DNA of 64,000 nucleotides from an uncultured Zhenpiania sp. Lineage in GTDB: Bacteria > Bacillota > Clostridia > Peptostreptococcales > Anaerovoracaceae. The notes beneath the pieces were generated by a model, which searched no databases, had not been told where the DNA came from, and worked only from the letters and a program-made list of their open reading frames with translations. Positions within the stretch are counted from its first letter, which is position 1. Every line of letters starts with the position of its first letter. The position numbers were made by a program, and so were the translations under genes. Below, one piece after another: positions 16,879-64,000 of this stretch. Where the stretch lies: assembly GCA_964625475.1 (NCBI GenBank), contig CAZVBL010000004.1, positions 1,143-65,142 on the forward strand, written 5' to 3'.

Positions 16879-16895
16879 CACATACCACCTCAACG

Positions 16896-34050: not shown

Positions 34051-34068
34051 CCCTTGCGTTTTTTTCGG

Positions 34069-44280: not shown

Positions 44281-44378
44281 GAGCGCGCTCCAGGGAATCC
44301 CACAAGCCGCCGCACCCGCACGGCATCGGTCATTTCCCCGAAGGCGAGTGCGCTCCAGGGAATCCCACAAGCCGCCGC
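44281..44378. repeat. 33-bp direct repeat (32/33 identical), 65-bp period, abutting the sigF stop codon
   Basis: GAGYGCGCTCCAGGGAATCCCACAAGCCGCCGC at 44281-44313 and 44346-44378. Confidence 0.88.
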
Positions 44379-45118
44379 TACCGCACCATCTGCTCCCGCA
44401 TGCTTTGAAGCACTTTCTTTTCAATGCGGGACACCTGAACCTGGGAAATCCCGATTTTCCCTGCGATTTGCTGTTGCGTCATATCTTTGAAATACCGCAG
44501 GACGATGATCTGCCTTTCCCGCTCCGGCAGGGTTCCAATCATCATTTTCAAATCGATCAGGTTGACGTTCCTGTCCTCTTCTGAAACGTGGCTGACCTTC
44601 CTCTCCCGGTAGCCCTCGGAGATTTCGCCGTTGTCCAGGCTCTCCACGTTTGTCAGGGCTTCCGCCGCATCGAGGATTTCCAGTATCTTTTCAACTGGCT
44701 GCCCCATTTGCTCCGACAAGTAGCTGAGCTTTGGCCAGGAGCCGTGCCGGTTGTAATAGTCTTCCCTGATTTTTTTCAGGTTTCGCATGTCGGTTTTCAG
44801 CTGACGGCTCACCTTGATCCTGCCGTCATCGCGAATGTATCGCTTGATTTCCCCCAGAATCATGGGAACGGCATAGGTGGAAAACATCACGTTGAATTTG
44901 GTGTCAAACCGATCGATGGCTTTTAGCAGGCCCATGAAGCCGATCTGCAAAAGATCGTCCAGCTCGCAGCCGGATCCGACAAATTTCAAAGCCAGGTTCT
45001 TTACAAGTCCTGTGTTCTGCGCGACAATCAGCTCCCGCGCTTCCTGGTCGCCTTGCTGCGCCCGTTCAATCAGCGCATATGTATCTTCTTTTTTTGCCGG
45101 AACGTATTTAGAGGCCAT
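44378..45118 (-). CDS. sigF: Forespore sigma factor SigF
   Basis: DDLLQIG..GLLKAID, FSTYAVPMILGEIKR, SQVQVSRIEK; last gene of the spoIIA operon. Confidence 0.95.
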   Translation of the reverse strand: MASKYVPAKKEDTYALIERAQQGDQEARELIVAQNTGLVKNLALKFVGSGCELDDLLQIGFMGLLKAIDRFDTKFNVMFSTYAVPMILGEIKRYIRDDGRIKVSRQLKTDMRNLKKIREDYYNRHGSWPKLSYLSEQMGQPVEKILEILDAAEALTNVESLDNGEISEGYRERKVSHVSEEDRNVNLIDLKMMIGTLPERERQIIVLRYFKDMTQQQIAGKIGISQVQVSRIEKKVLQSMREQMVR

Positions 45119-47198: not shown

Positions 47199-47336
47199 CG
47201 TTCTCCTTGTCCTTCTGATTATCCCTAAATCGATTTGTCCCTCGATCGGAAGTTGCCTGAATCTGCCCGAAAACCATCTGGAGTCCCAAAATCCACCTGA
47301 ATCCAGAAGTGTCCGCAAACGATCCGAATCCCAAAC

Positions 47337-48533
47337 CTATCGAAAACTCCCCAGCTTTCGGAACCGTGCCACGGCTCCCTTTACTTTGTCAAGCACGATG
47401 TCCATTTCTTCCACGGTGTTGTACCTCCCAAAGCTGAACCGAATCGCGCCTTCGATTTCTTTGTCCGTCAACCCCATGGCTTTCAACACATGGCTCTGTC
47501 CTTTCTTGTTGGAAGCGCAGGCTGATCCAGTGGAAACGTAGATTCCATCCTGCTCCAGCGTATGGAGCAGGACTTCTGCTCGGGTGCCAAGGAACGATAC
47601 GTTGAGCACTGCCGGGCAGCCGTCCTGGGGGCTGTTGATTTTGATGTCCGAAATCTCCTGCCGGATTCCTTCCATCAGGTAGTTTCGCAGCACCCCCAGG
47701 TCCATCGTCCGCCCGTCAGGCGAATCCATCCCCGCAATGTCATCTGAAGGTTCCAATCGCTGAACCGCGCCGGATGACGATTCCTCCAGTCGCCGGATCA
47801 TGTCGGCAGCCGTGCCAAAGCCTGCGATGGCCGGCACGTTTTCCGTTCCCGAACGCATCCCATCCTCCTGGCCGCCTCCTACGAGAAACGCCGGGATATG
47901 GATATTGGGCGCGATCCACAAGGCGCCGATGCCCTTTGGCCCGTGGATCTTGTGGCCGCTGACGGAAATCATGTCAGCGGTTTTCGGCAGGGGCAGCTTC
48001 CCAAATGCCTGCACCCCATCGGTGTGGAGCACAGCCTTTTTTTTATGCTTCGCAATTTCATCGATGGGCATGACGGTTCCCGTCTCATTGTTGACCTGCA
48101 TGATGGAAATCAGGATGGTATCCTCATCGATCGCTTCTTTCAGCTGCTCCATGTCCAGGCGGCACTCGCCATCCACGCCTACGAAAACCACGTCAAACCC
48201 CTGCTGGGCCAGCCGTTTGCAGGCTTCCAGCACGGCAGGATGTTCCACCTGCGAAGTAACGATTCTGCGGCCTCGCTTTTTCCTGGCCGCCGCAGTTCCG
48301 AAAATGGCCATGCTGTCGGCTTCCGTTCCCCCGGAAGTAAAATACAGGTTTCCCCGGGATTGCCCCATGGCGTTCATGACTTTTTTCCGAGCCGTCTTCA
48401 CGGCCTTTTCTGCTGTGACTCCCAGCTGGTAAAGGGACGATGGGTTCCCAAAGTCCTCTTTCATGTATGCGATCATGGTTTCCGTCACCGCATCGTGTTG
48501 TCTGGTGGTGGCGCTGTTGTCTAAGTAAATCAT
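47337..48533 (-). CDS. Cysteine desulfurase paired with ThiI (NifZ/IscS2-like)
   Basis: YLDNSATT, SGHKIHGPKG, STGSAC; lies directly upstream of thiI. Confidence 0.93.
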   Translation of the reverse strand: MIYLDNSATTRQHDAVTETMIAYMKEDFGNPSSLYQLGVTAEKAVKTARKKVMNAMGQSRGNLYFTSGGTEADSMAIFGTAAARKKRGRRIVTSQVEHPAVLEACKRLAQQGFDVVFVGVDGECRLDMEQLKEAIDEDTILISIMQVNNETGTVMPIDEIAKHKKKAVLHTDGVQAFGKLPLPKTADMISVSGHKIHGPKGIGALWIAPNIHIPAFLVGGGQEDGMRSGTENVPAIAGFGTAADMIRRLEESSSGAVQRLEPSDDIAGMDSPDGRTMDLGVLRNYLMEGIRQEISDIKINSPQDGCPAVLNVSFLGTRAEVLLHTLEQDGIYVSTGSACASNKKGQSHVLKAMGLTDKEIEGAIRFSFGRYNTVEEMDIVLDKVKGAVARFRKLGSFR

Positions 48534-48627: not shown

Positions 48628-51564
48628 CTATTTTCCATAATACTCCGAAAGCACCGACATCACGGTCGGTATGTCCAGTGGCTTCGTCAAATGGGCGTTC
48701 ATTCCTGCCCGTATGGTTTTCTTTACATCCTCATCATAGGCGTTCGCTGTCATGGCGATAATGGGGACGGTCGCCGCATCCGGGCGATCCATCGTGCGTA
48801 TTGTGCGAGTTGCCTCCAGGCCATCCATGACCGGCATCATGATATCCATCAAAATCACATGATAATACCCAGGCGTTGAGGCTGCAAATTTTTCCACCGC
48901 CGCTTTTCCATTTTCCGCAGGAAACACCTGTGCTCTTTCGTCCTCCAACACGGATCGGATGATTTCCATATTGAGCGCATTGTCCTCGACCGCAAGTATT
49001 CTCATGCCCGTTAGGTCACAAGCGACAGGTTTTGATTCTGAAAAAAGTTTGGGTTTCAATTCGGTAATCTCAATCGGCAGTTCTATGGTGAATTTGCTGC
49101 CCCTGTCCAACTGGCTTTCTACGGAAATCGACCCGCCCATCATATCGACGAACTGCTTGGTGATGGACATTCCAAGCCCGGTGCCCTTGTAATTCGTCCG
49201 GCCTCCTCCATCCGCCTGGGAAAAGGGTTCCCAGATATGTTCCAGGAACTCAGGGGTCATGCCGATGCCCGTATCCTCAACCTCAAACCGAATCATCGTT
49301 TCCCTGTCGGCATCGGGCGATTCCTCGATGCGAAACACGATTTTTCCGCCATCGGGCGTGAATTTCACCGCATTTCCAAGGATGTTCACCAAAATCTGCC
49401 GCAGGCGAAGTTCATCTCCTATCCGATACGGGTGTCGATATTCAGGGAATTCCCGGACAAATTCGATTTCCCTGTTCACCATCTGCCCCTGGATAATGGC
49501 AACGCAACGTTCTATCATGATCGTCATGTCCATGAACTCATGATTCAGGGATATCTTGCCGCTTTCGATGCGGCTCATGTCCAATACATCGTTAATGAGG
49601 TTCAGCAAATGTTCCGAGGATTCCAAAATTTTGCCGAGGCAGTCCTCCACCCTTTTCGGATTGTTCAGGGAACGCATGGCAATGTTGCCCATGCCCATGA
49701 TCCCATTGATGGGAGTGCGAATGTCATGTGACATGTTGGACAAAAATGTGCTCTTCGCCTGGTTGGCATATTTGGCCTGTTTCAACGCTTCTTCCAACGC
49801 TTTTCGCTGCTCCATCTCTTTTTTGATGGTTTCCGTTATGATTCTTTTTGCCAGGACCACTTGGTAACCGCGATCCTGCTCCGACAGCTTCGTGAAACGA
49901 AATTGGATGTAATCGGGTTCTTCCGCATTGTTGCGCAAATTCACATTGTAAATGCTTTTGTCCTGAAGTTGTTCCAGGATGAAATCGAGCTTTGTGGCAT
50001 CGAGCCACATTTCTTTGTCTTCATCGTGAACATGCTCCACATATGCGGAAATGGCCTCATAGTAATCGTTGCTGCTTGCCAGCGCTGCGATTTCCGGCGA
50101 ATCATCGTTCGCCTTGTATACGGACATCTCTTCGGTCTCGCAGTCGATCAATGCGATAAAATTGTAATCGCTGCTCAAAGCGGCGATGATTTCATAGGAT
50201 TCCTCCAGCATCTCCTTTTGGGATATTTCGCTGCGCATTTCATCATCCACGCCATGAACGCCCATGACGACCTGATGCTTGCCATCCTGCCACCCGCCCA
50301 TGCGAACCAGTTTCAACTGATAATATTCGATCTCCCCATCCTGCTGGATGCGATAATTCACATTGAGGGAGGCCTGCATGTCCAGCTCCATCCACAAATG
50401 CTCCGGGGAACACATCAGGTACAGGAATTCTTGATCCTCCTCGTAGACGACATCATGGATGTAACGTCTCATGCTTTCCTGAAATGAATGTTTTCCCGCA
50501 AAAAAGGCGTTGCCTTCACCGCTCATGTCATCGTTCGTGCGGTAAGGGGTTGCGGTTCCCGCATCAAGATCCACCAGATAGACGAAGCTATATTCCGCAC
50601 ATAAAGCCTGTATTATTGCAAACTGTTGCTTTTTTTCCTCCCACAGTTTGATCTCATCGCTTGTTTTTTTTGCAGTCTGATCCAGGAGTATGCGCTGGAA
50701 AACCAACTCTCCATTTTCCATCAGCAGTTTGATTTTCCCGCTCACATCGAGTATGGTGCCATCCTTGTGGCAAACCCTGTATTCGATGTCCGCACTATCC
50801 CCAACCTTCTCAAGGTGCCGCAGGCATTCCCGGAACCTGGGCTTATCCTCTTCTGCCACGGAATCAGCGATCAAATCAAATCCTGCCGCCTCCAGCTCTT
50901 CCCTGCTTTCGTATCCCAGAATTTTGAGGGCGGCGCGATTGACGCCGAGTATTCGGTTCCCATGCACCGTATGACGTATCATGCCGCAGTCCGTAGAGGC
51001 AAAGATGGCTTCCAATACCTGGCTTTGGTTCTCCAGTTTTTCTTTGTCCGCTGCGCTGGATCTGTCATAACGTTCGGTAAATACGACATATTTGAGGATT
51101 CGCCCCAGCTTTCGCATGGCCGCCCGCTCTTCCTGCGTCCATGTCCGTTTGGCATGAAAATCGATCATTCCCACGTTCCCGTCACATTCCTGGTCCCTCA
51201 GGATCCCATAACGCAGAATCTCATAGTCCGATTTTTCCACGCCGCCTTTTGGCATGATTCCATCTGCCGTCACTTCGCTCAGGCCTTCCTCATCGTACAG
51301 AACCAATGCCCTGTTCCAGAACTCGTCCGAAACCGTATGGATTTTTCCTTGAAAGTTGTACCGTTCTTCTGAAAAACTCGCATGGGTGACCACATATCCC
51401 TGATAGCCGATTAAAGCTTCTGCGACATAGGCAACATCAACGTTGAATTTCGTGCGGCAGGCATCCAAAATGCGCATGATATCCACATTCTCCACACGAT
51501 CTTTTCCTTGCAGCGCAAAACAATACTCCTGTAAGTCATCATCAATCCTGGTCTGCATCGTCAT
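48628..51564 (-). CDS. Orphan hybrid histidine kinase (GAF-like/PAS-HisKA-HATPase-REC)
   Basis: No TM segments; SNMSHDIRTP, NILGNAVKF, GTGLG, receiver EDN / ILMDIMMP; RBS GAGGAG before ATG 51564. Confidence 0.93.
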   Translation of the reverse strand: MTMQTRIDDDLQEYCFALQGKDRVENVDIMRILDACRTKFNVDVAYVAEALIGYQGYVVTHASFSEERYNFQGKIHTVSDEFWNRALVLYDEEGLSEVTADGIMPKGGVEKSDYEILRYGILRDQECDGNVGMIDFHAKRTWTQEERAAMRKLGRILKYVVFTERYDRSSAADKEKLENQSQVLEAIFASTDCGMIRHTVHGNRILGVNRAALKILGYESREELEAAGFDLIADSVAEEDKPRFRECLRHLEKVGDSADIEYRVCHKDGTILDVSGKIKLLMENGELVFQRILLDQTAKKTSDEIKLWEEKKQQFAIIQALCAEYSFVYLVDLDAGTATPYRTNDDMSGEGNAFFAGKHSFQESMRRYIHDVVYEEDQEFLYLMCSPEHLWMELDMQASLNVNYRIQQDGEIEYYQLKLVRMGGWQDGKHQVVMGVHGVDDEMRSEISQKEMLEESYEIIAALSSDYNFIALIDCETEEMSVYKANDDSPEIAALASSNDYYEAISAYVEHVHDEDKEMWLDATKLDFILEQLQDKSIYNVNLRNNAEEPDYIQFRFTKLSEQDRGYQVVLAKRIITETIKKEMEQRKALEEALKQAKYANQAKSTFLSNMSHDIRTPINGIMGMGNIAMRSLNNPKRVEDCLGKILESSEHLLNLINDVLDMSRIESGKISLNHEFMDMTIMIERCVAIIQGQMVNREIEFVREFPEYRHPYRIGDELRLRQILVNILGNAVKFTPDGGKIVFRIEESPDADRETMIRFEVEDTGIGMTPEFLEHIWEPFSQADGGGRTNYKGTGLGMSITKQFVDMMGGSISVESQLDRGSKFTIELPIEITELKPKLFSESKPVACDLTGMRILAVEDNALNMEIIRSVLEDERAQVFPAENGKAAVEKFAASTPGYYHVILMDIMMPVMDGLEATRTIRTMDRPDAATVPIIAMTANAYDEDVKKTIRAGMNAHLTKPLDIPTVMSVLSEYYGK

Positions 51565-51783
51565 AGCCGATTCTCCTCGGACAATCTCCAATTTTGTCCG
51601 GATTGTCCCCAATCATCCCGTTTTTCAGCTTTACGTTTCCTTTAACAATATACCACAATCTCGGCTTTAAGGCAAAAGAAAAAGAATCGCCACAGACAAT
51701 TGTTTCCACGTCCCATCGCAGGGCAGCATGGGCTCTGGCACTTTTCAACATGTCCCTCCCTTGTTTTCAGTGAGTTCCAGGCA

Positions 51784-51978
51784 TTATCCACAGGATTTTT
51801 GAAATCGTATACAATTTTATCCATAGCCCCATGTGGATAAACATATTTTTACAATCGTTGATATTTCAACACTTTCATCATTCTGCAAAAATAAGTTATC
51901 CACAGTTTTCCACAATCTCTTCCAGATATTTTCAAATCATGCTGGATCCATTGATTTTTCATCGTTTTCTGTGGATGA
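51784..51978. promoter_or_regulatory. DnaA-box cluster
   Basis: Perfect TTATCCACA at 51784 (+), 51832 (-) and 51896 (+); one-mismatch boxes at 51817 (+), 51906 (+) and 51970 (-); AT-rich intergenic DNA. Confidence 0.85.
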
Positions 51979-52111
51979 AACCTCGCATTTCCTTGAAAGA
52001 TCGGAAAAATCCTGTCGTTTCCACCGTTTCCATGAAACAACAGTATACTTGTCTCGAAAAGTATGATACACTAAAACCTCAAATCAAAGAACCACATGGA
52101 GGATACCTGTT

Positions 52112-52810
52112 ATGATAAGAAAAATCATTGAAATCAACGAAGAAGCTTGCAACGGCTGCGGCCTGTGCGCAGAGGCATGCCACGAAAGCGCGATCGGCAT
52201 GGTGGACGGAAAAGCCAAATTGCTGCGGGACGATTACTGCGATGGTCTGGGGGATTGCCTGCCGGCATGTCCTACCGGAGCCATTTCCTTTGTGGAACGG
52301 GAAGCGGATCCATACGACGAGGCCGCCGTCATGGCGAACAAAGAAAAAAAGCAGGGTGCGGCCTCCGCTCCTTGCGGATGTCCGGGGAGCAACGCCAGGA
52401 TCCTATCGCCTGAACCAAAAACGACAGGCTCCTGCGACCCTGCTTCCACGCAGCTGAGGCAGTGGCCGGTGCAGATCAAGCTGGCTCCTATCCACGCACC
52501 CTATTTTCAGGATGCGAAACTTCTCATCGCAGCGGACTGCGCAGCATACGCTTATGGGAACTTTCACAATGCGTTCATGAAGGGAACCGTCACCCTCATC
52601 GGCTGCCCGAAGCTGGATGACATCGATTATACGGAAAAACTGACGGAAATCATCCGGCAAAACGACATCAAAAGCGTGACCGTTGCGCGCATGGAAGTGC
52701 CTTGCTGCGGCGGCATTGAAACGGCTGTCAAAAATGCGCTGCAGGCCAGCGGCAAATTCCTGCCGTGGCAGGTGGTGACCATCTCCACGGATGGGCGGAT
52801 TTTGGACTAG
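52112..52810 (+). CDS. 4Fe-4S dicluster protein with a C-terminal Cys-containing domain
   Basis: CNGCGLCAEAC, CDGLGDCLPACP, LRQWPVQ, AADC, GCPKLD, MEVPCC. Confidence 0.9.
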   Translation: MIRKIIEINEEACNGCGLCAEACHESAIGMVDGKAKLLRDDYCDGLGDCLPACPTGAISFVEREADPYDEAAVMANKEKKQGAASAPCGCPGSNARILSPEPKTTGSCDPASTQLRQWPVQIKLAPIHAPYFQDAKLLIAADCAAYAYGNFHNAFMKGTVTLIGCPKLDDIDYTEKLTEIIRQNDIKSVTVARMEVPCCGGIETAVKNALQASGKFLPWQVVTISTDGRILD

Positions 52811-53442
52811 AATCCCATTTCTTCCATAATCAGGACGACTTCAACATCATCAATATCGTTCATCTTTGCATGATGCACAACGATGGCATTGCATATTTTT
52901 CCTTCCGTATTGCAGTTAAAACATCGATGTTCCCCCGACTTCACGCAAGGCGTTGGCAAGTTGTATTTGAGCGCATTCAAGGGTGCCGCTACGTTGCGTG
53001 CCCTGTACATCGCCCGATCCAGATCCGGTTCGATCTTGTTTGCCGAAACGATGAAAAACACCTTTTCATGCCCGAAAAGGGATCCCGCTATGCGGTTTCC
53101 AGTGCCATCGATGTTGACCATTTCCCCCGTCTGTGCCATGCCGTTTACGGATGTGAGAAATACATCGGTCAGCATCGCTTTCCTTGCCAAATCGAGAAAC
53201 TCATCATTGTCTTTGCTCTGATACGGGTCGTACACCGTATTATGGCTGCGAAGCCTTCGGTACAAGCCCATGTCTGCCATCGTTCTGCTGTCGCCAAAAC
53301 CGACGGTTTTCTGGTCGATCGACGCATCTACATACTGCGCGGCTTCCTCTGCAGTTTCAAACACAGAGACTTGGTACCGCTTTCTGATGAGAGCCTTTCT
53401 TGTTTTTTCTACTGCCTCTTTCATGTGTTCCATGTGTTCCAA
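52807..53442 (-). CDS. LUD-domain (lactate utilization-like) protein
   Basis: GFGDSRT, LTSVNG, NIDGTGNR, GEHRC..C..C; TTG or a nearby ATG start. Confidence 0.85.
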   Translation of the reverse strand: MEHMEHMKEAVEKTRKALIRKRYQVSVFETAEEAAQYVDASIDQKTVGFGDSRTMADMGLYRRLRSHNTVYDPYQSKDNDEFLDLARKAMLTDVFLTSVNGMAQTGEMVNIDGTGNRIAGSLFGHEKVFFIVSANKIEPDLDRAMYRARNVAAPLNALKYNLPTPCVKSGEHRCFNCNTEGKICNAIVVHHAKMNDIDDVEVVLIMEEMGF

Positions 53443-53555
53443 GAGGGTTCACTTCCTTTCTGGATTTATTGCATATGAGAAATGTCGCGATTGGCAGTTC
53501 CAAAACATGCTTTCCGTTTCATTTGGCAAGCACGCATTTTCGTTGCCTTGCCTGT

Positions 53556-53585
53556 AGTATACTGGAAACAACCGGATTTTTCAAG
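53556..53585 (-). repeat. 30-bp direct repeat copy 1, a sigma-A promoter
   Basis: Minus strand TTGAAA-AATCCGGTTGTTTCCAG-TATACT; 28/30 identical to 61549-61578. Confidence 0.85.
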
Positions 53586-53605
53586 AAAAAGCCAAGGGGT
53601 TGGCA

Positions 53606-54115
53606 TTATTTTTTGTGTTTTTTCTTTTTCTTTTTTGCCGCTGCGTTGGAGCCGATTCTGGCGGCTCGAATTTCCTCATCCGTTCGATTGCTGGATCGAT
53701 TCAGGATTTTTTCAATGTCAGTGCCTTTCCCCGGAGGCGGCACATCAAGGCGTTTCCGTCTCATGGCCTCAAACAAGAGCTGCTTGGCGTTCATGGATAC
53801 GGACGTGGAAAAATTTACCTTTCTATATAAATCGATGAGGTTGCTCGAACCGAGCATTCTCTTGACATCGAAGGTAATGTTCATGATTTTTGCAAAATTG
53901 ATGACATTGTCATCGTTGACATTCGCATCCAGCCTTTTCCATGCGCGTTTCAAAACATTGATGGTGATAATGAGATAAATGATGACACCCAAAAGAAGGT
54001 AGGGAAGCAACATGATGACATTGGCTTTCAATGTGGCGAAAACGCCGCTGTTCGGTGTCACAAAGTACAATGCCACAAATAAAAATATGAGTACTACGAA
54101 TTTATTCCTGCTCAC
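53606..54115 (-). CDS. Hypothetical membrane protein with a poly-Lys tail
   Basis: RBS GGGAGG with GTG start, two N-terminal hydrophobic segments. Confidence 0.75.
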   Translation of the reverse strand: MSRNKFVVLIFLFVALYFVTPNSGVFATLKANVIMLLPYLLLGVIIYLIITINVLKRAWKRLDANVNDDNVINFAKIMNITFDVKRMLGSSNLIDLYRKVNFSTSVSMNAKQLLFEAMRRKRLDVPPPGKGTDIEKILNRSSNRTDEEIRAARIGSNAAAKKKKKKHKK

Positions 54116-54171
54116 TGCGATCCTCCCATGTATTTTGCAGTTTCATGCAACTTTTGTCATCGCCCCTGGCC

Positions 54172-54825
54172 TCAATTCATGTCCTCGGGTTCGCTTTCTT
54201 CTTCCAGCGCGCTTCCTGTCTGGCATCCGTCAACAAAATCGGAATCCGAAGCGATGGAATCCAGCACCATGCCTGCAGCTGCGACCTCTCCTCGTTTCAC
54301 CAGCTCATCGATATGCTTTTCATGATCCAGAACGGAAAGCCCACCGTCCACAGCATCCACCATGATGAAATACGTGCGCCCTTCCTGATCCTTGCATTCC
54401 ACGACATAGAACCTTTTGTAAAAAGAATCTTCTTCGATGATTTCGATCTTCGGAGTGAACATCAGCTTTGCTTTGCTGATGTACTGCCTCATGCAAAACT
54501 GATGGCCAATCTCGTAGCACTGCTCCATGGGAGTGACGGTTTCGAGAGACTCCTCATGCGAAATGGCCTCCTCTATGTATTCCGGCTCACCCTTGGCTTC
54601 GTACACGGATCCGCAAACCCTGTCGATGATGCAGTCAACCAGCTTGTTAAGCGGCTTCATGAATTTGAACTTTTCCTTGCCAACGGTCAAACGATATCGA
54701 AAGCGCACATACGGATAATGAACATTCTCAATGCTTTGGAGATCCAAACCGGGATCTGTATGAAGCAGCAGCATCAGGGCTTCCTTTTGTGTATAAGTTG
54801 GTTTTAACAGCTTTGCCTTTATCAT
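54172..54825 (-). CDS. Hypothetical cytoplasmic protein
   Basis: 217-aa ORF with RBS AAAGGT, co-oriented downstream of the symporter gene. Confidence 0.75.
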   Translation of the reverse strand: MIKAKLLKPTYTQKEALMLLLHTDPGLDLQSIENVHYPYVRFRYRLTVGKEKFKFMKPLNKLVDCIIDRVCGSVYEAKGEPEYIEEAISHEESLETVTPMEQCYEIGHQFCMRQYISKAKLMFTPKIEIIEEDSFYKRFYVVECKDQEGRTYFIMVDAVDGGLSVLDHEKHIDELVKRGEVAAAGMVLDSIASDSDFVDGCQTGSALEEESEPEDMN

Positions 54826-54895
54826 ATGAATCCACCTTTCGCATGATCGCCATCGGGAAAGCAGCTTTACGACAGTGGGACTACATGTCTAAATG

Positions 54896-54928
54896 GGGCT
54901 TTCTGCCAACGCCGTTGGCAGAAAGCCC
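54896..54928. other. Perfect 15-bp hairpin between co-oriented genes
   Basis: GGGCTTTCTGCCAAC-gcc-GTTGGCAGAAAGCCC, no U-tract. Confidence 0.7.
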
Positions 54929-54989
54929 ATTGTCCATCGTTCGCATCTGTAGTTTCATGTGTCAATATCCGCCTTGCGGCAGATGAGTG

Positions 54990-56582
54990 TTACAAAGTCT
55001 CGGCAGCCAAGGCACACCTCTTGCTAAATACAAACTGCGTAATCGCTTTGGTTTCAGTTGACAGATGCTTGGATGTCGCAACCTGCACTTCTTTTGATAC
55101 AGCGACCTTCTTTCCCTTGGCTCTGTCCATGAGGTCGCAGATTTCCTGGCTGGTCGGTTTGCCAAAGTGGCTCCCCACAATCATGGCCAGGGCAGATCCG
55201 ATGACTCCTACGAAGAACTGGTGGCATCCGGTAACAACGTCAAGCCCACACTGTGCCCAAATCTGCACCAATGCGGCTCCTGCGATCATGGATGCCACGG
55301 ATCCCACGGCATTTGCCTTTTTCCACCAGACCGCGCATACATAGCTCGGCAGGAACGCTGCGCCCATGAAGCTGAACGTATCGACGATTAGGTCGAAAAT
55401 GCCCGGTGGGTTCAATATCGCAATGATGATGCCGATAATGCCCACAACAATGATGGATCCTTTGGATACGATTACAACGCTCTTGTCGCTGGCATCCTTC
55501 TTGAGCCATCTTTTATAAAAGTCGATGGAAATGATGGTCGCAATCAGCAGCATCAAAGCGGCAACCGTACTCATGACCGCCGACATGATCGCCGTAAGCA
55601 GCAATCCTGATATGACGCCTGGCAGCTGAACCTCTGCCAGCGAAGGGATTACCAGTTCAGGATCTGCGTTGATCAGTCCGGAAGGATCCTTTGTAAACAT
55701 GATAAGCCCGGCAAGCCCAAGGAAATAAGGGATGTAACAAAATAGCTGGGTCCAGATCGTGGCATAGATGACGGACGTTTTCACTGCCTTGGGACTGCCC
55801 ATGGCCATGTGTTTGTTGACGCTGTGAGGCAGACCCATGTAGCCCACCATGTAAATCAGCACGGCACCGGCAATGACGCCGTAACCGCCTTCATACATGT
55901 TGTCTTTGCCCCATACGCTCAGGAGCGTAGGATCGATGGCCGCCAACGATTCATTCAGTCCTACGAACCATCCCACTTTCGTCATTGTAATGATGAACAC
56001 GAGGATCAGCGATCCGATCATGATGAAGCCCTGGATGCAGTCTGTCCACGCAACTGCGAAATACCCGCCTATGAACGTGTAGAACAAGATGACCGCGACA
56101 CCGACGACAAGCCCGACTTCCAGCGGAAATCCGAACAGAGCCACCAGCGTTTTGCCAGTCGTCATGAACTGCCCCAGCACATAGCACGCAAGGCCAAAGA
56201 CTGCAATGATGCAGCCGATAATTTTGACGGGAATGGATTGATATCTTTTTTCAAGATACTCGATCGGCGAAATCGCATCCAGCAGCTGGGAAAGCCTCCG
56301 CATCCTTCTTCCCAGCACGGTCAGGTTGATCATGCCGCCCATGCTGTCTCCGACCGCATAGAAGATTGCGAAGTATCCCATCGCATATGCCTCCGATGGA
56401 CCGCCCATGAACATGAATCCGCTCATTGCGGTTGTTTGAAGCGTCAACGCTGTAATGAGTGGCCCCATGGATCTCCCGCCGACCATGTAATCCGCGGAAC
56501 TTTTTGCCCTCTTGTTCCAATAAATCCCCATGGCGATCATGCCGATAAAATAAACAAACAGTACAATGATTTCTACCCTCAT
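54990..56582 (-). CDS. Sodium:solute (PutP-like) symporter
   Basis: DYMVGGR, AMSGFMFMG.P, FIGGYFAVAWTD..QG, GYMGLPH, SAVMST. Confidence 0.93.
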   Translation of the reverse strand: MRVEIIVLFVYFIGMIAMGIYWNKRAKSSADYMVGGRSMGPLITALTLQTTAMSGFMFMGGPSEAYAMGYFAIFYAVGDSMGGMINLTVLGRRMRRLSQLLDAISPIEYLEKRYQSIPVKIIGCIIAVFGLACYVLGQFMTTGKTLVALFGFPLEVGLVVGVAVILFYTFIGGYFAVAWTDCIQGFIMIGSLILVFIITMTKVGWFVGLNESLAAIDPTLLSVWGKDNMYEGGYGVIAGAVLIYMVGYMGLPHSVNKHMAMGSPKAVKTSVIYATIWTQLFCYIPYFLGLAGLIMFTKDPSGLINADPELVIPSLAEVQLPGVISGLLLTAIMSAVMSTVAALMLLIATIISIDFYKRWLKKDASDKSVVIVSKGSIIVVGIIGIIIAILNPPGIFDLIVDTFSFMGAAFLPSYVCAVWWKKANAVGSVASMIAGAALVQIWAQCGLDVVTGCHQFFVGVIGSALAMIVGSHFGKPTSQEICDLMDRAKGKKVAVSKEVQVATSKHLSTETKAITQFVFSKRCALAAETL

Positions 56583-56764
56583 GCCTGAGCCACCCCCTCA
56601 TTGTCATGCCTCTTTTTTTCATCAATGAACACCTCAAATTCGGAATCATCGATCTGGGCATCCTGTCTCTTCATAACGGAATAGATGATGACAGCCGCAA
56701 TGATGTTGACGAATGGCCAGATTAAAATGGCCAAAAATGTGGTGATTGGCATTCCTATAATCAT
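56579..56764 (-). CDS. Small single-TM symporter accessory protein
   Basis: RBS AGGAGG, one TM, ATGA overlap with the symporter gene. Confidence 0.75.
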   Translation of the reverse strand: MIIGMPITTFLAILIWPFVNIIAAVIIYSVMKRQDAQIDDSEFEVFIDEKKRHDNEGVAQA

Positions 56765-56960
56765 AACTTGAACCTCCTAACATAAAAACTGAAATGCTTC
56801 TTTGCTTGCAGGCGCTGACGCCGCAAGGCAACCCACCCCCATAAAACTCCTCTTCCTCCAGGACGATGCCATGAAATTGACAAGCATCTACCCCATCGAT
56901 GAAAATGGAACGATCTACACAGGCTTGCTCCTCAGACCTGGAAGCATGCATCACACTATT

Positions 56961-56989
56961 ATCTTACTAATATTCAGACAACTTCTCAA
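56961..56989 (-). promoter_or_regulatory. sigma-A promoter giving a leader of about 190 nt
   Basis: TTGAGA-17bp-TAAGAT. Confidence 0.55.
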
Positions 56990-57065
56990 TAGCAGCTACC
57001 TTTATTTAAAGAAAATTTAGGTTGGGTTTTAAGTAAATTTAATATTTTCTTTATTATCGGCACTT

Positions 57066-58538
57066 TTATTTTAAGTAACGGGAAGCAGTCGCCCGATAAG
57101 CCGCGATTTTTTTTCCAACAGACTGGCTGCGCCGACTGAAAAAGCTGATGCTGACAAAAAATATAACATTGACCATAAGCCCCAGCACGGCGCAAGGGGC
57201 GGAAGTCATGGATGTAACGCCATCCAAAAAGAAAAATGTCAGAACACCGCTCCACAAACCTGCCAGGGCTGCCAAAGCCGTGGAACGTTTCCAAAAAAGA
57301 GCGCCGAGCACCGGCACGATCAATTGCATCGTTCCACCCATGGAAAGGACAGCGATATCAAAGACGCTCTGAGGGATCAGCAGGATCAGAAGATATGTGA
57401 CTCCAGAAACCACTACTACCGCCCATTTGGCAACAGACAGAAGATTCTTTTCCGTTATGTTGCGGTTTGCATACCGTTTGTGGATGTCGATTGTATAAAT
57501 GGCTACCAAAGCATGGATTTGGGAATTTGCTGTAGAAAGAATGGCCGCAACGATGCCGATGACTACGAAAGCGCACAAAAGGGGCGGCGCATAACGGCTC
57601 ATCATGCTGGCAATGAGCATGTCTCCCCCATCGTTGTTTTTGTTCAGAAGAATGCTGGCCGTCCCTGCGAAAAGGGTTCCAACGCAGACGATGGACGAAA
57701 GGCACAGGAAAAAAGGCAGCGTTTCAAAATGCCGCACCGATCCTGCGGCAAAATTTCGTATCCATATTTGAGGTCCCATAAAAGCGCCGACAGGCACGAC
57801 GAAAAACAAGGAAAGCCAAAGGGCAGTCCTGTTGAATCCAGCATCTTCCCCCCCCAATGTCACATGATCGATGCCATCGTCCACCACGCGGGCAAACATG
57901 GTTTCCATCCCGCCTGCCGTTTTCATGAGATAAAAGCCGCATCCCAGCAGCGTGATAATGATCAGCGCTCCGTAAAAGATATCTGTCAACGCAACCGCCC
58001 GCAGGCCGCCGGCCCACAAATAGATGACCAACACGGCAAAAAAAATCAATCCGCTGACCTGCCAGGAAATATAACCTCTTGTGACAGCTTGAAGGAGCAA
58101 AATCCCTCCCATCATCTGCGCAAGAAGATAGAACATGGTAAAGACAATGGTCACCACTGTCACTGACAAACTCAAAAGGCGGCTGCCGTAGATATCGTCA
58201 AAGAAATCGGCAGGAGTCACATATCCATAAGTTTTTCCATAAAACCAGATCCTCCTTCCAACAGCATAGAAGAGGACGGCAAAAAGAGCGTCCCAGCCGA
58301 TCGTTGTCATGTAAATGGGACCTGCTTCATAGAAATAGGCAATGCCTCCCATGAACGCAAATGCGCTCATCCATGTCGCAAAGACCGTAGCGTACATGGG
58401 AAAAAGTTTCAGTTTTCTCCCCTGCAGAAAAAAGTCCGATATGGTAGGCGCCGAATAGTTCCTGGCAATCTCTGCCAAAAGCAGCGGAATAAAAAGAAAC
58501 GTGCAAATCATCAGCATCACGATTGGATTTACGGTCAT
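57066..58538 (-). CDS. Sodium:solute symporter family protein
   Basis: DFFLQGR, MSAFAFMGG, GGLRAVALTD, AILSTANS; RBS AAGGAGG. Confidence 0.92.
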   Translation of the reverse strand: MTVNPIVMLMICTFLFIPLLLAEIARNYSAPTISDFFLQGRKLKLFPMYATVFATWMSAFAFMGGIAYFYEAGPIYMTTIGWDALFAVLFYAVGRRIWFYGKTYGYVTPADFFDDIYGSRLLSLSVTVVTIVFTMFYLLAQMMGGILLLQAVTRGYISWQVSGLIFFAVLVIYLWAGGLRAVALTDIFYGALIIITLLGCGFYLMKTAGGMETMFARVVDDGIDHVTLGGEDAGFNRTALWLSLFFVVPVGAFMGPQIWIRNFAAGSVRHFETLPFFLCLSSIVCVGTLFAGTASILLNKNNDGGDMLIASMMSRYAPPLLCAFVVIGIVAAILSTANSQIHALVAIYTIDIHKRYANRNITEKNLLSVAKWAVVVVSGVTYLLILLIPQSVFDIAVLSMGGTMQLIVPVLGALFWKRSTALAALAGLWSGVLTFFFLDGVTSMTSAPCAVLGLMVNVIFFVSISFFSRRSQSVGKKIAAYRATASRYLK

Positions 58539-58731
58539 GGATATGCCTCCTTTGTTTCAGGTCTCATCGATGGCTGCCGCATCATGCCGCAAACAAATCA
58601 TATCCCAGAAAAAATTGTTTGTACGAAGGCTTGCAGATGCAGCGAGTATTCGATATAATAGTGTTGGATTGCTGGTTGCTGTGTTGACACATTTCAGGCC
58701 ATACAGCAAACATACGGAAAGAAGTGAACCT

Positions 58732-60429
58732 ATGTATTTCGGTGTTTTGCTCATTTTTACTTTTGTATCCCTTGCAATTTCGTTTTCCTATTTTTACATG
58801 TTTTCACAGCGTGAAGAACTGTTTATGAAATACTGGGGGTTTGCCTGGTCTGCTTATTCCTGCAGCCTGTTATGTCTCGTTGTCTTCTTTCATACGGAAT
58901 TTACCCTTCTGTTGGAAGTCCGCAAAGTCATCGACATGTTCAACCTGTTGTTGCTCCTCTTTGGGGTATTCGCTTTCATGCACGCCGCAATCCCTACCTA
59001 CTGGTACAGGTTTTCCTTATACATGCTCCTCCTGGCCGGTATCTTTATTTTTTACCAGCTGGATTTGCTGTCTTATTGTCTCCCCATCAGCATGTTCCAG
59101 GTTGCCACCACCCTGGCCATCTGTTATAACGTGGCCCGGTACTGGCATATCCCCAAGCTGGAAAGGATCGTAGTTGCCGTCGTGTTTTTCCTCTGGGGCG
59201 GAACAAAGGCAGCCTTTTCCATACTGGAGCTTTTTTATGCGTCCACTTTTAACTTATATATGATAGAAATTCTCCTGTCCAACATTCTGAATTTCTGTAT
59301 TCTTGCCATATATGCCCAATACGCCCACCATGAAGTCGATCTGGCCGGGCATCTCTACCAGACCGTGGTAGAAAATGCATCGGATCTGATCTTTTACTAT
59401 CAGCTGACGCCCTACCCATCGTTCACCTATGTGACGCCCTCTGCGGAGACCCTGACCGGATATGCGCCTGGGCAATTTTATGAAAACCCCCATCTCTATC
59501 TCTATCTCGTAGGAAAAGATGATTTTCCCATCGTTGAAGATATTTTTTCCGGAAAGATTGACAGCGACGAAGGGCAAATCGTCCAAATCGTCAAAAAAGA
59601 CGGAACGCTCTTCTGGGGGGAGCTCAAGGTCACCATTATCAAAGACAAGAACGACCAGTCCATTGCGGTAGAAGGAAGCTTAAGGGACATCACCGCTATG
59701 AAATCCGCACAGCTGGCTCAGATACAAGCGAAACGTTCGCGCGACCTGCTCCTGTCCTATATCTCCCATGAATTGCGCACGCCGATCACCTCCATCGCCG
59801 GATACCTGACAGCCTTGGAGGAAGGAGTCATCGACAGCGAAGATGACGTCAGGGAAGCCATGGAAATCATTACGACCCAGACCCTTCTGCTGAAAAAACT
59901 CATCGATGATTTGGATCAACTCTCCAAGCTGGAGATGCATCAGTTTTCTTTTTCATTCATGACCTACCCTGTGGCCGATATCGTCCAGCGTCTGATGCGG
60001 GAATACGATGCCATCATCCGCATGGCGGACCGCCATAGGACGACTGTGGCATACAGCAAAGAGGAAATGGATGATCGATGGATCGTGGCGGACGAGGCCA
60101 GGATCAGCCAAGTGTTTTCCAATCTGCTGAACAATGCCATCAAATATTCCGGGGCGGAAGATTCCATTTCTGTCCTTTTCCATATCGATGAACAGAAAGA
60201 TGCCTTTCTCGTCAGCATCGCCAACACCGGCCAAGGCATCGCACCCGAGGATCTTCCCCATATCTTCGACCGATTTTATCAGGCTGACAGCCGTAAAAAA
60301 TCCGGACGCGGCCTTGGACTCGCTATTTCCAGTGAAATCATCAAGGCCCACAATGGTACCATTCATGCGCAAAGCGAAGAAGGAAAAAGCACGGTATTTA
60401 CATTTACGATTCCACTGTACAATATATAA
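58732..60429 (+). CDS. Multi-TM PAS histidine kinase
   Basis: About 7 TMs, PAS domain (YVTPSAETLTGY), ISHELRTP, NLLNNAIKY, GRGLGLAI; TTGCAG-17-TATAAT promoter at 58631-58659. Confidence 0.93.
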   Translation: MYFGVLLIFTFVSLAISFSYFYMFSQREELFMKYWGFAWSAYSCSLLCLVVFFHTEFTLLLEVRKVIDMFNLLLLLFGVFAFMHAAIPTYWYRFSLYMLLLAGIFIFYQLDLLSYCLPISMFQVATTLAICYNVARYWHIPKLERIVVAVVFFLWGGTKAAFSILELFYASTFNLYMIEILLSNILNFCILAIYAQYAHHEVDLAGHLYQTVVENASDLIFYYQLTPYPSFTYVTPSAETLTGYAPGQFYENPHLYLYLVGKDDFPIVEDIFSGKIDSDEGQIVQIVKKDGTLFWGELKVTIIKDKNDQSIAVEGSLRDITAMKSAQLAQIQAKRSRDLLLSYISHELRTPITSIAGYLTALEEGVIDSEDDVREAMEIITTQTLLLKKLIDDLDQLSKLEMHQFSFSFMTYPVADIVQRLMREYDAIIRMADRHRTTVAYSKEEMDDRWIVADEARISQVFSNLLNNAIKYSGAEDSISVLFHIDEQKDAFLVSIANTGQGIAPEDLPHIFDRFYQADSRKKSGRGLGLAISSEIIKAHNGTIHAQSEEGKSTVFTFTIPLYNI

Positions 60430-60443
60430 GGAGGTTGTTTTCA

Positions 60444-61178
60444 ATGGCCAGAGAAAAAATTTTAGTCGTAGACGATGAACACGCAATCAACAAATTGATA
60501 TGTTCCTATCTGGTAAAGGAACAATTTTCCGCCCTTTCCGCCTATAGCGGCAAGCAGGCCCTGGAATTGTTGCGGAAGGACAACCCTGACATGATCATCC
60601 TGGACATCATGCTCCCTGACATGGAAGGTCCGGAACTATGTCTGGAAATCCGCAAGACCAGCAATGCGCCCATTATTTTCCTCAGCTGCAAAACCCAGGA
60701 AATCGATAAAATCATCGCCCTTTCCTCAGGAGGAGACGACTATATGACAAAACCATTCATGCCCGGCGAGCTGGTGGCGCGCATAAAAGCGCACCTGCGC
60801 AGGCAAAACGTCCTCAGCGCCCAAATGTCCCAGTCGCCCGAAAACAACATCCGCGAGTTCGAAGGGCTGACCGTTGACCTCGACACGCACGAAGTATTCC
60901 TGGAGGGAAACCCTGTAAGCATCACCACGAAAGAATTTGAAATCCTCCGGCTACTGATAGAAAATCCCCGCAAAGTCTTTTCCGCGCAGCAAATCTTTGA
61001 GACTGTCTGGAAATCCACCTGCATGGAAAGCGGCGCCAAAACGGCGAGCGTCCATATCAGCACCCTGCGGAAAAAGCTGGAAAGCCATCCGGCCAGTCCT
61101 CAGTACATCATCACCGTGCGAGGGGTTGGTTATAAGTTTAACCAGACCCTTTCCCATCGAGATCCCGGGAACCCTTGA
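60444..61178 (+). CDS. OmpR-family response regulator
   Basis: ILVVDDE, ILDIMLP, GDDYMTKPF, ITVRGVGYKF. Confidence 0.95.
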   Translation: MAREKILVVDDEHAINKLICSYLVKEQFSALSAYSGKQALELLRKDNPDMIILDIMLPDMEGPELCLEIRKTSNAPIIFLSCKTQEIDKIIALSSGGDDYMTKPFMPGELVARIKAHLRRQNVLSAQMSQSPENNIREFEGLTVDLDTHEVFLEGNPVSITTKEFEILRLLIENPRKVFSAQQIFETVWKSTCMESGAKTASVHISTLRKKLESHPASPQYIITVRGVGYKFNQTLSHRDPGNP

Positions 61179-61413
61179 GCAAGGGCTGCCTGCCCCACCT
61201 GGTGCGCCATGCGTAGAAAAGCACGCACGCCATGTAAAACCAGCAGCAGATTACATATCCGTAAAGGAACGGCATTCCCAGTACAAAAGGATATACCCTG
61301 TTCCGAACAAAAAATATCCCCGGGAACTCCACTGCGCAAAACCCTGCGGCAAGCAACGCCCATACGATGACAGTTCGTTTGTGCATCCTGCCTTTTTGCG
61401 TCTTCCTATTCAC
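61138..61413 (-). CDS. Small membrane protein, DUF3311-like symporter partner
   Basis: RBS AAGGAGG with GTG 61413; EFPG..RVYPFVLGMPFLYGY..CW. Confidence 0.7.
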   Translation of the reverse strand: MNRKTQKGRMHKRTVIVWALLAAGFCAVEFPGIFFVRNRVYPFVLGMPFLYGYVICCWFYMACVLFYAWRTRWGRQPLLKGSRDLDGKGSG

Positions 61414-61548
61414 GATGCGCCTCCTTTTGCATTCCATGCGGTGCGCTGATAACACAAAAAGCAGCGACCCCTGCGGGATGGAAAATTTTCCTTCAATTTC
61501 CCATGCTTTTTCCCCTCCTGCGTCCCGCATTTTCATTCCCTTTCCTAC

Positions 61549-61578
61549 AGTATACTGGAAACAGCCGGATTTCTCAAG
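61549..61578 (-). repeat. 30-bp direct repeat copy 2, a sigma-A promoter
   Basis: Minus strand TTGAGA-AATCCGGCTGTTTCCAG-TATACT. Confidence 0.85.
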
Positions 61579-61603
61579 GGAAAACATGACAATCCCAAAG
61601 CTG

Positions 61604-64000
61604 TCACGCCTTTTCCCCAGCCGCCATTTCCCCGCCCTCGCAGGCGGTTTCCAGAAATTCCAGGATTTCCGGCAGTTTCTTCCCCTTGCCCGGCAAAAAG
61701 CGCAAAAATGGTTTCACGCCTCCGTGGATCAAAGCCCTGGCTCCGTATTTGGCCGACAGAGCGGCCAGGGAACCTGAGTTGAGCGCATTGTTCCGGCCAA
61801 AGTCGAACACGACTTTGTTTCCTTCCTCATGGATCCTGACAACCTGCAGTTTCTCCGCAGCGGCGCGAATCCGGGAAACGGCAATCAGGTTCATCGTGGC
61901 CTGTGGGATTTCACCGAACCGATCGATCAACTCATCGATGGTTTCCTCTTCGTCCGCTGCGGTTTCAATGGAAGCGATTTTCTTGTACATCTGCAGCTTC
62001 AGCACTTCATCGGCGATGTAGCGATCCGGAATCAGCGCGTTCACATTAAGTTCGATGGAAGTTTTCTCCCCTTCCGGCGCAACCTTTTCTCCTCTCAGGC
62101 TTCGCACCGCATCCTCCACCAGCTTGCAGTAAAGCTCGTATCCAACGTTCATCATGTGGCCGTGCTGCTCCGTTCCCAGCAGGTTTCCGGCTCCCCGGAT
62201 CTCCAGATCGCGCATTGCCACTTTGAACCCTGCTCCAAACTCGGTAAATTCCCGGATGGCTCGCAGCCGTTTTTCCGCCACTTCCGAAAGGCACTTGTCC
62301 TTTTGGAACATGAGGTAGGCGTAGGCCATTCGGTTGGATCGCCCTACCCGGCCGCACAGCTGGTACAACTGGGAAAGGCCGAACCGATCCGCATCCAGGA
62401 TGATCATGGTGTTGACGTTGGGAATGTCGATGCCCGATTCGATGATGGTCGTTGCCACCAGCACGTTGCTCTCGCCCTGGACGAACCCCATGATCACGTC
62501 TTCCAAATGGCGTTCGTTCATCTGCCCATGCCCTACGGCTATTTTGGCATGAGGCACCAGTTCTTCAATATGGGCTGCGACCCGATTGATGCCCTTGACC
62601 CGATTGAACACCACATAGACCTGACCACCCCGATCCAGTTCTTTTTCGATGGCATCCTGTATCAGGGCATCCTCCTGCTCCAGCACATAAGTCTGAACCG
62701 GGTACCGATCTTCCGGCGGCTTGCTGATGATGCTCATGTCCTTGATTCCCGCCAGGGACATGTGAAGGGTTCTGGGAATGGGCGTGGCGGAAAGGGTCAA
62801 CACGTCCACGTTTTTTTTCCATTGTTTGATGATTTCCTTGTGTTCCACGCCAAACCGCTGCTCTTCATCGACTACCAGAAGCCCCAGATCCTTGAACTTC
62901 ATGTCTTTGGAAAGGAGCCGGTGGGTTCCGATGACCACATCGATGCTGCCTTTGGCAAGACCCTGCACAATCGCCTTTTGCTGGGCATCCGTCCGAAATC
63001 GGGAGAGCATTTCCACTTTGAAGGGAAACGTCTCGAACCGCTCCCGCAGGGTATAGTAGTGCTGGTTGGCCAGGATGGTGGTGGGCACCAGGACAGCCGC
63101 CTGCTTTCCATCGGCAACGCATTTGAACATGGCTCTCGCCGCCACTTCCGTCTTGCCAAACCCCACGTCTCCGCAGAGCAGCCGATCCATGGCCGTATCC
63201 TTTTCCATGTCCTTTTTGATTTCTTCGATGCAGCGAAGCTGGTCATCGGTCTCCTCGTAGGGAAAGCTGTCCTCAAACTCCCGTTGCCATACGGTGTCCG
63301 GCGAAAAGGCATGGCCTTTCTCTACCTGACGAGCTGCGGAAACTTCCAGCAATTCCATCGCCATGCTGGCAATGGCGGCTTTGGCTTTCGTCTTTGTGAC
63401 CTTCCACTCGCTGCCGGAAAGCTTGTTCAGCTTGGGGGATCCGGCATCGGCTCCCACATATTTCTGGACCCGATCCATCTGCTCCACCGGCACATAGAGC
63501 ATGTCTTTCCCGCTGTATTTGATTTTCAGGTAATCCTTTTTCACCTTCTGGACGGTGAGCTGCTGGATGCCGAGGAACTTACCGATTCCGTGGTCTTCAT
63601 GCACCACATAATCCCCCTTCTGCATGTCCGCAAAGGAGCGAATCGGCTGGCTCAAATCGCGGGAAGGCTTCTTCCTCCGTCTTTTCTTTCTCGGAACGCC
63701 GAAAATGTCGCCATCCCAGATGTAACAGAATTTTTCTTTTGGAAAATCGATGCCGCCGGTCAGTTCCCCTGTTTTCACCCATACCCTGGACAGGAGGCCG
63801 GCACGATCCAAAAACTCTTCCATGTTGGAAGCCCGTTCCTGGCTGGCGCAGACGATGGTCACTTTGTAGCCTTGTTTCAAATATGCCTTGATTTCCGTCT
63901 CCAGCAGATCCATTTTGCCGTTGAACAGGAGCGTGGGCTTGCTGATGACGCTGCGAACCTCCGCAAAGGATTCCACGCCCTTGATGACCCTTTGCAGCGG
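61604..64000 (-). CDS. mfd: Transcription-repair coupling factor, 5' end outside the window
   Basis: CarD-like RID (VVHEDHGIG), GDVGFGKT, DEEQRF, SATPIPRT, GFKVAMRDLEIRGAGNLLG, TRCF domain. Confidence 0.98.
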   Translation of the reverse strand, partial: PLQRVIKGVESFAEVRSVISKPTLLFNGKMDLLETEIKAYLKQGYKVTIVCASQERASNMEEFLDRAGLLSRVWVKTGELTGGIDFPKEKFCYIWDGDIFGVPRKKRRRKKPSRDLSQPIRSFADMQKGDYVVHEDHGIGKFLGIQQLTVQKVKKDYLKIKYSGKDMLYVPVEQMDRVQKYVGADAGSPKLNKLSGSEWKVTKTKAKAAIASMAMELLEVSAARQVEKGHAFSPDTVWQREFEDSFPYEETDDQLRCIEEIKKDMEKDTAMDRLLCGDVGFGKTEVAARAMFKCVADGKQAAVLVPTTILANQHYYTLRERFETFPFKVEMLSRFRTDAQQKAIVQGLAKGSIDVVIGTHRLLSKDMKFKDLGLLVVDEEQRFGVEHKEIIKQWKKNVDVLTLSATPIPRTLHMSLAGIKDMSIISKPPEDRYPVQTYVLEQEDALIQDAIEKELDRGGQVYVVFNRVKGINRVAAHIEELVPHAKIAVGHGQMNERHLEDVIMGFVQGESNVLVATTIIESGIDIPNVNTMIILDADRFGLSQLYQLCGRVGRSNRMAYAYLMFQKDKCLSEVAEKRLRAIREFTEFGAGFKVAMRDLEIRGAGNLLGTEQHGHMMNVGYELYCKLVEDAVRSLRGEKVAPEGEKTSIELNVNALIPDRYIADEVLKLQMYKKIASIETAADEEETIDELIDRFGEIPQATMNLIAVSRIRAAAEKLQVVRIHEEGNKVVFDFGRNNALNSGSLAALSAKYGARALIHGGVKPFLRFLPGKGKKLPEILEFLETACEGGEMAAGEKA

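Follow-up and report, generated by a model that had tools for sequence, protein, structure and literature searches.

What links two nearly identical 30-nt sequences that stand, in the same orientation, at the two ends of an 8-kb block of transporter and two-component genes: an insertion, a shared regulator, or a promoter? This question arises in a 64,000-nt stretch of contig CAZVBL010000004.1 (hereafter, the window) from an uncultured Zhenpiania sp. of the Anaerovoracaceae. An initial annotation, made from the letters alone, had reported that positions 53556-53585 and 61549-61578 match at 28/30 bases, 7993 bp apart, and our recount reproduced this. The similarity reaches 58 nt, from 53533-53590 (P1) to 61526-61583 (P2), with 49/58 ungapped identities and a blastn match of 86.8% over 53 nt. 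The edges of this module are sharp, as the adjoining 30 nt on either side are identical at just 9/30 and 7/30 positions. The reading that we favor, with a probability of about 0.6, is that P1 and P2 represent the same sigma-A promoter module of ~58 nt, copied and reused, in this lineage specifically, within a variable genomic island.

Two strong consensus promoters could look alike by chance, and near-consensus hexamers alone account for about 10 of the shared bases. However, the 30-mer matched only these two sites in the window when up to 3 mismatches were allowed, and 100 dinucleotide shuffles yielded no match. Counted on the aligned 58-mers, the 17-nt spacers of P1 and P2 are identical at 16/17 positions, and 22/29 bases match outside the -35 box, the spacer, and the -10 box (p about 1e-8). 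These shuffle, spacer, and flank statistics ruled out a chance resemblance, to which we assign a negligible probability. Because of the matches beyond hexamers and spacer and the sharp 58-nt edges, P1 and P2 are best accounted for by common descent: judged by their alignment, they are homologous copies of a discrete module, and more than two good promoters. We also considered terminal inverted repeats like those of a miniature inverted-repeat transposable element within the 58-mer and set them aside, the resemblance being weak (about 8 nt, by eye).

Both copies read as promoters on the minus strand. P1 has a -35 box TTGAAA at 53584-53579, a 17-nt spacer, and a -10 box TATACT at 53561-53556; P2 has TTGAGA at 61577-61572 and TATACT at 61554-61549, again 17 bp apart; the compact module can be summarized as TTGANAAATCCNGNNGTTTCCAGTATACT. 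These are the top two minus-strand matches to a sigma-70-type promoter in 12.5 kb, at 10/12 each, with the near-consensus hexamers and the 16-18 bp spacing of a sigma-A promoter. Each copy lies about 20-25 nt past a stop codon (that of hyp169, a conserved membrane protein gene, at 53606, and that of mfd at 61604), and each stands 105-130 nt ahead of a start codon. P1 is the predicted promoter of a LUD-domain protein gene (211 aa; 52807-53442, minus strand), from whose start at 53442 it lies at -91 to -148, and it carries about 23 nt of initial transcribed region past the -10 box. P2 occupies the gap between the mfd stop and a gene for a DUF3311-like small protein (61138-61413, minus strand), at -113 to -170 from its start at 61413, a start that aligning the orthologs confirmed. 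The genes downstream of P1 and P2 have good ribosome-binding sites. A terminator-like hairpin, GCCAACCCCTTGGC, followed by a T-run (53591-53604, minus strand), closes hyp169 and abuts the -35 box of P1. The initial annotation had described each repeat as a complete promoter placed between a stop codon and a gene; consensus, position, and strand agree with this on the minus strand only, and from the same features P1 and P2 are predicted to fire as promoters.

Other functions for the transcribed regions were examined and dropped. No Rfam family matched the repeats at gathering score or at E<=1, with both the region and the whole window scanned; the leaders showed no notable fold (z = -1.05, -2.11, and +0.94), and they share nothing past about +25, so a riboswitch or small RNA reading was abandoned. 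A small open reading frame (ORF) starting at a shared ATGCG was likewise discarded, as it runs for just 23 codons after P1. After P2, it is in frame with the DUF3311-like ORF, and the orthologs align from the GTG at 61413 behind AAGGAGG.

A search of the window for the spacer sequence changed the picture of a simple pair. The initial annotation had counted two copies, but a third, rearranged one (P3) lies outside the 8-kb block, on the plus strand at 51991-52049. P3 is a long form of the module, made up of CCTTGAAA, 9 extra nt, AAATCCTGTCGTTTCCA, 19 extra nt, and GTATACT, and it lies 62 nt upstream of the start of Fer232 (52112-52810, plus strand), a gene for a 2x[4Fe-4S] ferredoxin-like protein that is convergent with the LUD gene. 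Across the window, both the motif AAATCCNGNNGTTTCCA, with its 14 specified bases, and the 9-mer CAGTATACT are confined to P1, P2, and P3. When the segments GATCGGAAA and CCGTTTCCATGAAACAACA are removed from P3, the remaining 31-mer is identical to P1 at 28/31 positions and to P2 at 27/31; over the same span, P1 and P2 agree at 28/31. The corresponding regions of relatives, collapsed in the same way, reach just 23-25/31 to P1 and P2, which are therefore closest to the P3 of their own genome.

The history of P3 can be followed in relatives, in which Fer232 is 84-88% identical at the amino acid level. In three of them (L094-L096), the gene sits in another neighborhood (DUF6512 / Fer232 / ABC-ABC-GntR), and about 400 bp upstream of it are kept at 76-80% nucleotide identity, long P3 form included. 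Conservation of the long form in a different setting argues that it is ancestral at Fer232, and this comparison indicates that P3 is the native upstream region of that gene.

The block between P1 and P2 was next compared with its orthologs. Scans of its ORFs with Pfam and NCBIfam identified sodium:solute symporter (SSS), histidine kinase, response regulator, DUF3311-like, and LUD domains, plus two conserved proteins of unknown function, and no integrase, recombinase, or transposase domain, in agreement with the initial annotation, which had noted no integrase inside. Orthologs of the kinase, 43-65% identical, stand in the same arrangement in L082/L083, L084, L085, L086-L088, L091, L092, and L093. 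The order there is small protein, response regulator and kinase, the symporter SSS490, a small ORF, the symporter SSS530, hyp217, and mostly also hyp169. The genes next to these orthologous cassettes vary by lineage (mgtE, HSP20, rpsI-rplM, or an IF-2B-like gene). No repeat copy is present at either end of the orthologous cassettes, and the spacer motif, allowing 2-3 mismatches, is absent from those of L082, L084-L088, and L091-L093.

The LUD gene, which the initial annotation had regarded as a resident displaced by the block, turned out to belong with the cassette. The closest LUD homolog (69%) starts 4 bp after the hyp217 homolog, inside the cassette, in L086-L088; in L082/L083, a LUD gene (57%) follows hyp169 with an HxlR gene between them; and in L093, a more distant LUD-domain paralog (28%) stands at the same cassette end. 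Because it adjoins the cassette in three other lineages, we regard LUD as cassette cargo and not as a displaced resident. Its G+C content at third codon positions (GC3), 0.571, is island-like, compared with 0.68-0.70 in the flanking core genes. In relatives, LUD is coupled to the preceding gene or lies beside an HxlR or LysR regulator gene, and the small membrane-protein gene comes almost immediately after mgtE or another gene.

We then asked what varies at the chromosomal site itself, using 80 species anchored on Mfd. The best Mfd match, at 89%, is from 'Clostridiales bacterium strain 16', and that of Hominibacterium faecale is 82% identical; by its Mfd, the window belongs to the Anaerovoracaceae (Clostridiales Family XIII). 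In none of the 80 species do the first 10 kb downstream of mfd contain the cassette or LUD, and none shows an mfd-P-LUD arrangement. In L004, nifS-thiI follows about 90-105 bp after mfd (gap 3071-3177) with no repeat copy, and in L001 the mfd-nifS gap (12459-17327) holds 5.5 kb of other cargo, namely VanW, a D-Ala-D-Ala ligase, VanY, VanZ, and an AAA_14/DUF4143 ATPase. Therefore, what varies at this site is the entire 13-kb stretch between mfd (its 3' part at 61604-64000, minus strand, forming the right border) and the nifS-type cysteine desulfurase gene (47337-48533, minus strand, forming the left border, with thiI after it at 46008-47318). The GC content of this island is 0.486, versus 0.547 and 0.552 in its flanks. 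Its outer junctions, nifS side against mfd side, share no 9-mer.

These comparisons bear directly on the proposal of the initial annotation that the 8-kb block is a mobile insertion into an mfd-LUD promoter, which it would have duplicated and from which it could be excised by way of the repeats. Direct repeats in the same orientation do flank the 8 kb, the region is lower in GC than mfd and nifS, and the cassette is found in differing genomic contexts among relatives. However, the single-copy empty site that such an insertion leaves in relatives was found in none of the 80 species, L004 lacks all 13 kb of the island, orthologous cassettes end without a repeat, and the gene on the far side of P1 is itself cargo. 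The block ORFs encode no integrase or transposase, and a third copy of the module lies outside the block. Excision by homologous recombination is also disfavored: efficient RecA recombination needs roughly 25 bp or more of identity, and the two repeats agree at 84% of positions and nowhere match exactly for more than 15 bp. Known target-site duplications are far shorter than 58 bp. Islands bounded by attL and attR are similar in that their several kb of lower-GC accessory genes also lie between imperfect direct repeats tens of bp long; unlike them, the block lacks a recombinase as well as a conserved att target, tRNA or otherwise, its repeats miss the variable unit, the LUD gene beyond the repeat is a cassette gene, and no single-copy empty site was found. 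Three of four tests for an att-bounded element thus failed (recombinase, repeats that match the variable unit or an empty site, and a resident gene beyond the repeat), and the crossover-core test, with 15 bp as the longest exact run in 49/58, is compatible with an old event but lends the element no positive backing. Insertion of the 8-kb block at an mfd-LUD promoter is not supported by these alignments, and we consider it most improbable.

Reuse of a resident promoter accounts for the same observations as follows. The module would be a three-member, lineage-specific family, whose long P3 form would be ancestral and native to Fer232. A cassette conserved in the Anaerovoracaceae here lies in the variable 13-kb mfd-nifS island; its DUF3311-like and LUD genes no longer have the upstream arrangement of their counterparts in relatives, and each carries the compact module. 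The compact form may have derived from the long form by two deletions, of 9 and 19 nt, and this compaction would put TTGAAA and TATACT at the canonical 17-bp spacing. The copying would have taken place within the lineage of this genome. Several points weigh against this account. Promoter activity is predicted from consensus only, and the direction from long to compact is drawn from three relatives; gene conversion between the copies could give the same appearance. The searched collections contain no close relative of this species, the nearest LUD being 69% and the nearest Mfd 89% identical, and the order of events therefore cannot be reconstructed. The module family was counted within the 64 kb of the window only, and the ungapped similarity of P3 is modest, its local score being 30 and that of the top unrelated site 28.5; it carries weight because the exact blocks are collinear.

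The invariance of part of the spacer raises a different possibility. In AAATCC-N5-GTTTCCA, the 14 specified bases are the same in P1, P2, and P3, whereas the bases next to them differ and indels flank the motif in P3, a pattern suggesting that this sequence is possibly a shared regulator-binding site. P1, P2, and P3 might accordingly be operators of one regulator that binds this motif and/or the palindrome AGTATACT, their similarity being kept by function, and LUD, Fer232, and the small membrane protein would then form one regulon. The half-sites form a direct repeat with 10-bp spacing, and the placement of LUD in relatives beside local regulator genes (HxlR, LysR) makes regulated expression plausible. 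One might speculate that the regulator is DnaA. Six DnaA-box-like 9-mers, defined as matching TTATCCACA with at most 1 mismatch, lie at 51784-51978, directly upstream of P3; three of them are perfect TTATCCACA and are the only perfect ones in the window. This cluster is kept with Fer232 and P3 in relatives (L094 9671-9791 and L096 9668-9798, at 76-80% nucleotide identity), and two 9-mers of the P1/P2 spacer, AAATCCGGT and GTTTCCAGT, resemble weak DnaA boxes oriented like most boxes of the cluster. On the other hand, these 9-mers match the consensus at about 4-6 of 9 positions and so fall short of that definition. The P3 orthologs lack the motif (having ACTTCCA or GCTTCCA, with different spacing in L096), as do the orthologous cassettes, and the 22/29 homology outside a plausible operator indicates common descent regardless. 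The initial annotation had likewise proposed that one regulator binds the shared spacer around CCGG; a lack of other copies, which it had named as part of a refutation, was not observed, as P3 has AAATCCNGNNGTTTCCA exactly, but the CCGG center reads CCTG in P3, and the orthologous two-component cassettes do not carry the motif. Overall, we see a single regulator as the cause of the similarity as possible but doubtful.

The cassette's own OmpR/VanR-type response regulator (60435-61178, plus strand) is very unlikely to bind the P1/P2 spacer. Its gene is inside the block, and the spacer has a 10-bp-spaced direct repeat typical for this family; however, orthologous response regulators, 61-78% identical, occur in cassettes without the motif, and the aligned cassettes share another sequence in the position and form expected of a response regulator operator. 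This is an array of TTAAA(T/A) direct repeats with a period of about 10-11 bp (57004-57043, minus strand), upstream of a TTGAGA-17-TAAGAT promoter (56989-56961). It precedes the small-ORF/SSS530 promoter in five taxa, namely the window, L082 (about 8330-8400), L084, L085, and L086. The absence of the motif from orthologous cassettes, with this array conserved instead, is why we doubt the response regulator as spacer binder; the array is a likely candidate operator for it.

The DnaA-box cluster itself may mark a DnaA-regulated promoter or a DnaA-titrating cluster. No dnaA gene is near 51784-51978, and a replication origin at P3 was rejected because there is no turn in GC skew there and the cluster travels with Fer232 in relatives. 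A more elaborate version of promoter reuse would combine these elements: a compact, consensus-spaced promoter born by two deletions from the DnaA-box-linked Fer232 region and copied to two genes of a newly assembled island, with a spacer that may also make expression of the LUD gene and of the transporter-associated protein gene depend on DnaA or on the state of replication. This full sequence of events, which would be a traceable case of natural promoter birth and spread without mobile-element machinery, we hold to be rather improbable.

Returning to promoter reuse in its simpler form, the module can be compared with known cases. Putative mobile promoters have been defined as sequences that precede non-paralogous genes and share at least 80% identity over at least 50 nt (Matus-Garcia, Nijveen and van Passel 2012; PMC3575422). 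The P1/P2 alignment (49/58 ungapped, or 86.8% over 53 nt) lies above both values, P1 and P2 precede the starts of unrelated products, and the module belongs to no known insertion sequence (IS), tRNA, or RNA family, with Rfam empty and no viral or metagenome match. As in that study, similar non-coding sequence stands upstream of unrelated genes in one genome and is neither an IS nor a known RNA family (PMC3575422). Unlike the published cases, a likely source (the Fer232 upstream region) and a likely route (two short deletions) can be named here, all three copies are in one 13-kb accessory island, and the -10 box, mostly left out of the published screen, is part of the module (PMC3575422). The same source cites promoter capture in Cit+ E. 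coli and the activation of ldh in Lactococcus (PMC3575422). In these, too, a promoter copied from another part of the genome comes to serve a gene severed from the transcription it once had; they differ in being tandem duplications or IS insertions under observed selection, whereas the present case is drawn from comparative anatomy. P1 and P2 are a new example of the already known phenomenon of promoter reuse.

The remaining features of the island complete the description of the locus. The DUF3311-like protein has 91 aa and two transmembrane segments, and its gene has a GTG start; DUF3311 matches were sub-threshold in the window copy and in all four orthologs scanned. This gene and that of the response regulator converge and overlap by about 41 bp (61138-61178), as they do in most relatives examined, and P2 transcription would therefore run antisense into the response regulator and kinase genes unless terminated. 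The PAS-domain membrane histidine kinase gene occupies 58729-60429 (plus strand; probable start 58729). On the minus strand follow SSS490, the second sodium:solute symporter (57066-58538); SSS530 (54990-56582) with its small upstream partner ORF, small61 (61 aa; 56579-56764); hyp217, a conserved protein of unknown function (54172-54825); and hyp169, a conserved membrane protein of unknown function (53606-54115), the last two being cassette members. Beyond Fer232, the island holds a gene for a hybrid PAS histidine kinase of 994 aa (48628-51612, minus strand), which has no counterpart in the orthologous cassettes. In Rhizobium, the SSS-family permease MctP is under the two-component system MctS/MctR. 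The cassette is similar in that symporter genes stand beside a divergent kinase and response regulator pair, with small membrane-protein partner ORFs. Unlike MctP, both symporters are far below its NCBIfam cut-off, and equally below those for MctC, PutP, PanF, and ActP, and the cassette adds two proteins of unknown function and LUD.

The distribution of the cassette was also surveyed in broader collections. When LUD was looked up as an exact protein, the one hit was a 5-kb Logan contig (L081) whose sequence is identical to the window and which has the same structure. BLAST of the block against plasmids gave only two short matches (130-176 nt, 69-73%), inside the response regulator gene, and promoter pattern scans with 23 and 21 specified bases found no match in JGI metagenome contigs or IMG/VR. 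Similarity within the cassette is mosaic: the kinase, response regulator, and SSS490 are closest to L082 (65, 78, and 72%), SSS530, hyp169, and hyp217 to L093 (84, 69, and 60%), and LUD to L086 (69%), a distribution that suggests recombination within the cassette. In L085 (8446-9914), the SSS490 ortholog is split into two predicted ORFs, of 368 and 134 aa, which the tblastn match shows to overlap; the split is probably due to a frameshift, reflecting either a pseudogene or an assembly error.

The window contains further repeats and paralogs. A second short repeat of 51 nt (82%) is found at 8238-8288 and 37982-38032; the former copy precedes the RNase P RNA gene (minus strand, 7870-8222), whose 5' end is 16 nt away, and both hold an inverted repeat that, by eye, stays complementary despite changes in both of its arms (ATGAACT/AGTTCAT versus GAATTTC/GAAATTC). 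Closely spaced direct repeats lie at 33954-34052 (33 nt at 66-bp spacing, 97%) and 44281-44386 (41 nt at 65-bp spacing, 93%), neither of which was reported by Tandem Repeats Finder. Two stretches of 74-80% nucleotide identity between 29007-29257 and 47803-48044 link nifS to a region near 29 kb, which is probably a second cysteine desulfurase paralog.

Together, these results remove a false lead, in that the 8-kb block no longer reads as a cryptic mobile element lacking an integrase and carrying promoters at its ends. They define a conserved Anaerovoracaceae cassette that combines two SSS symporters and their small partner ORFs with a two-component system, two proteins of unknown function, and, in several lineages, LUD, and they show that the content of the mfd-nifS gap varies within this clade. 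If the spacer is an operator, it would delineate a small regulon linking ferredoxin-like, LUD-domain, and transporter-associated membrane proteins. If promoter reuse is the correct reading, the locus would serve as a clean worked example of how the genes of a relocated, rearranged accessory cassette may gain transcription signals by reusing a resident promoter, with the probable source copy, P3, visible 1.5 kb away.

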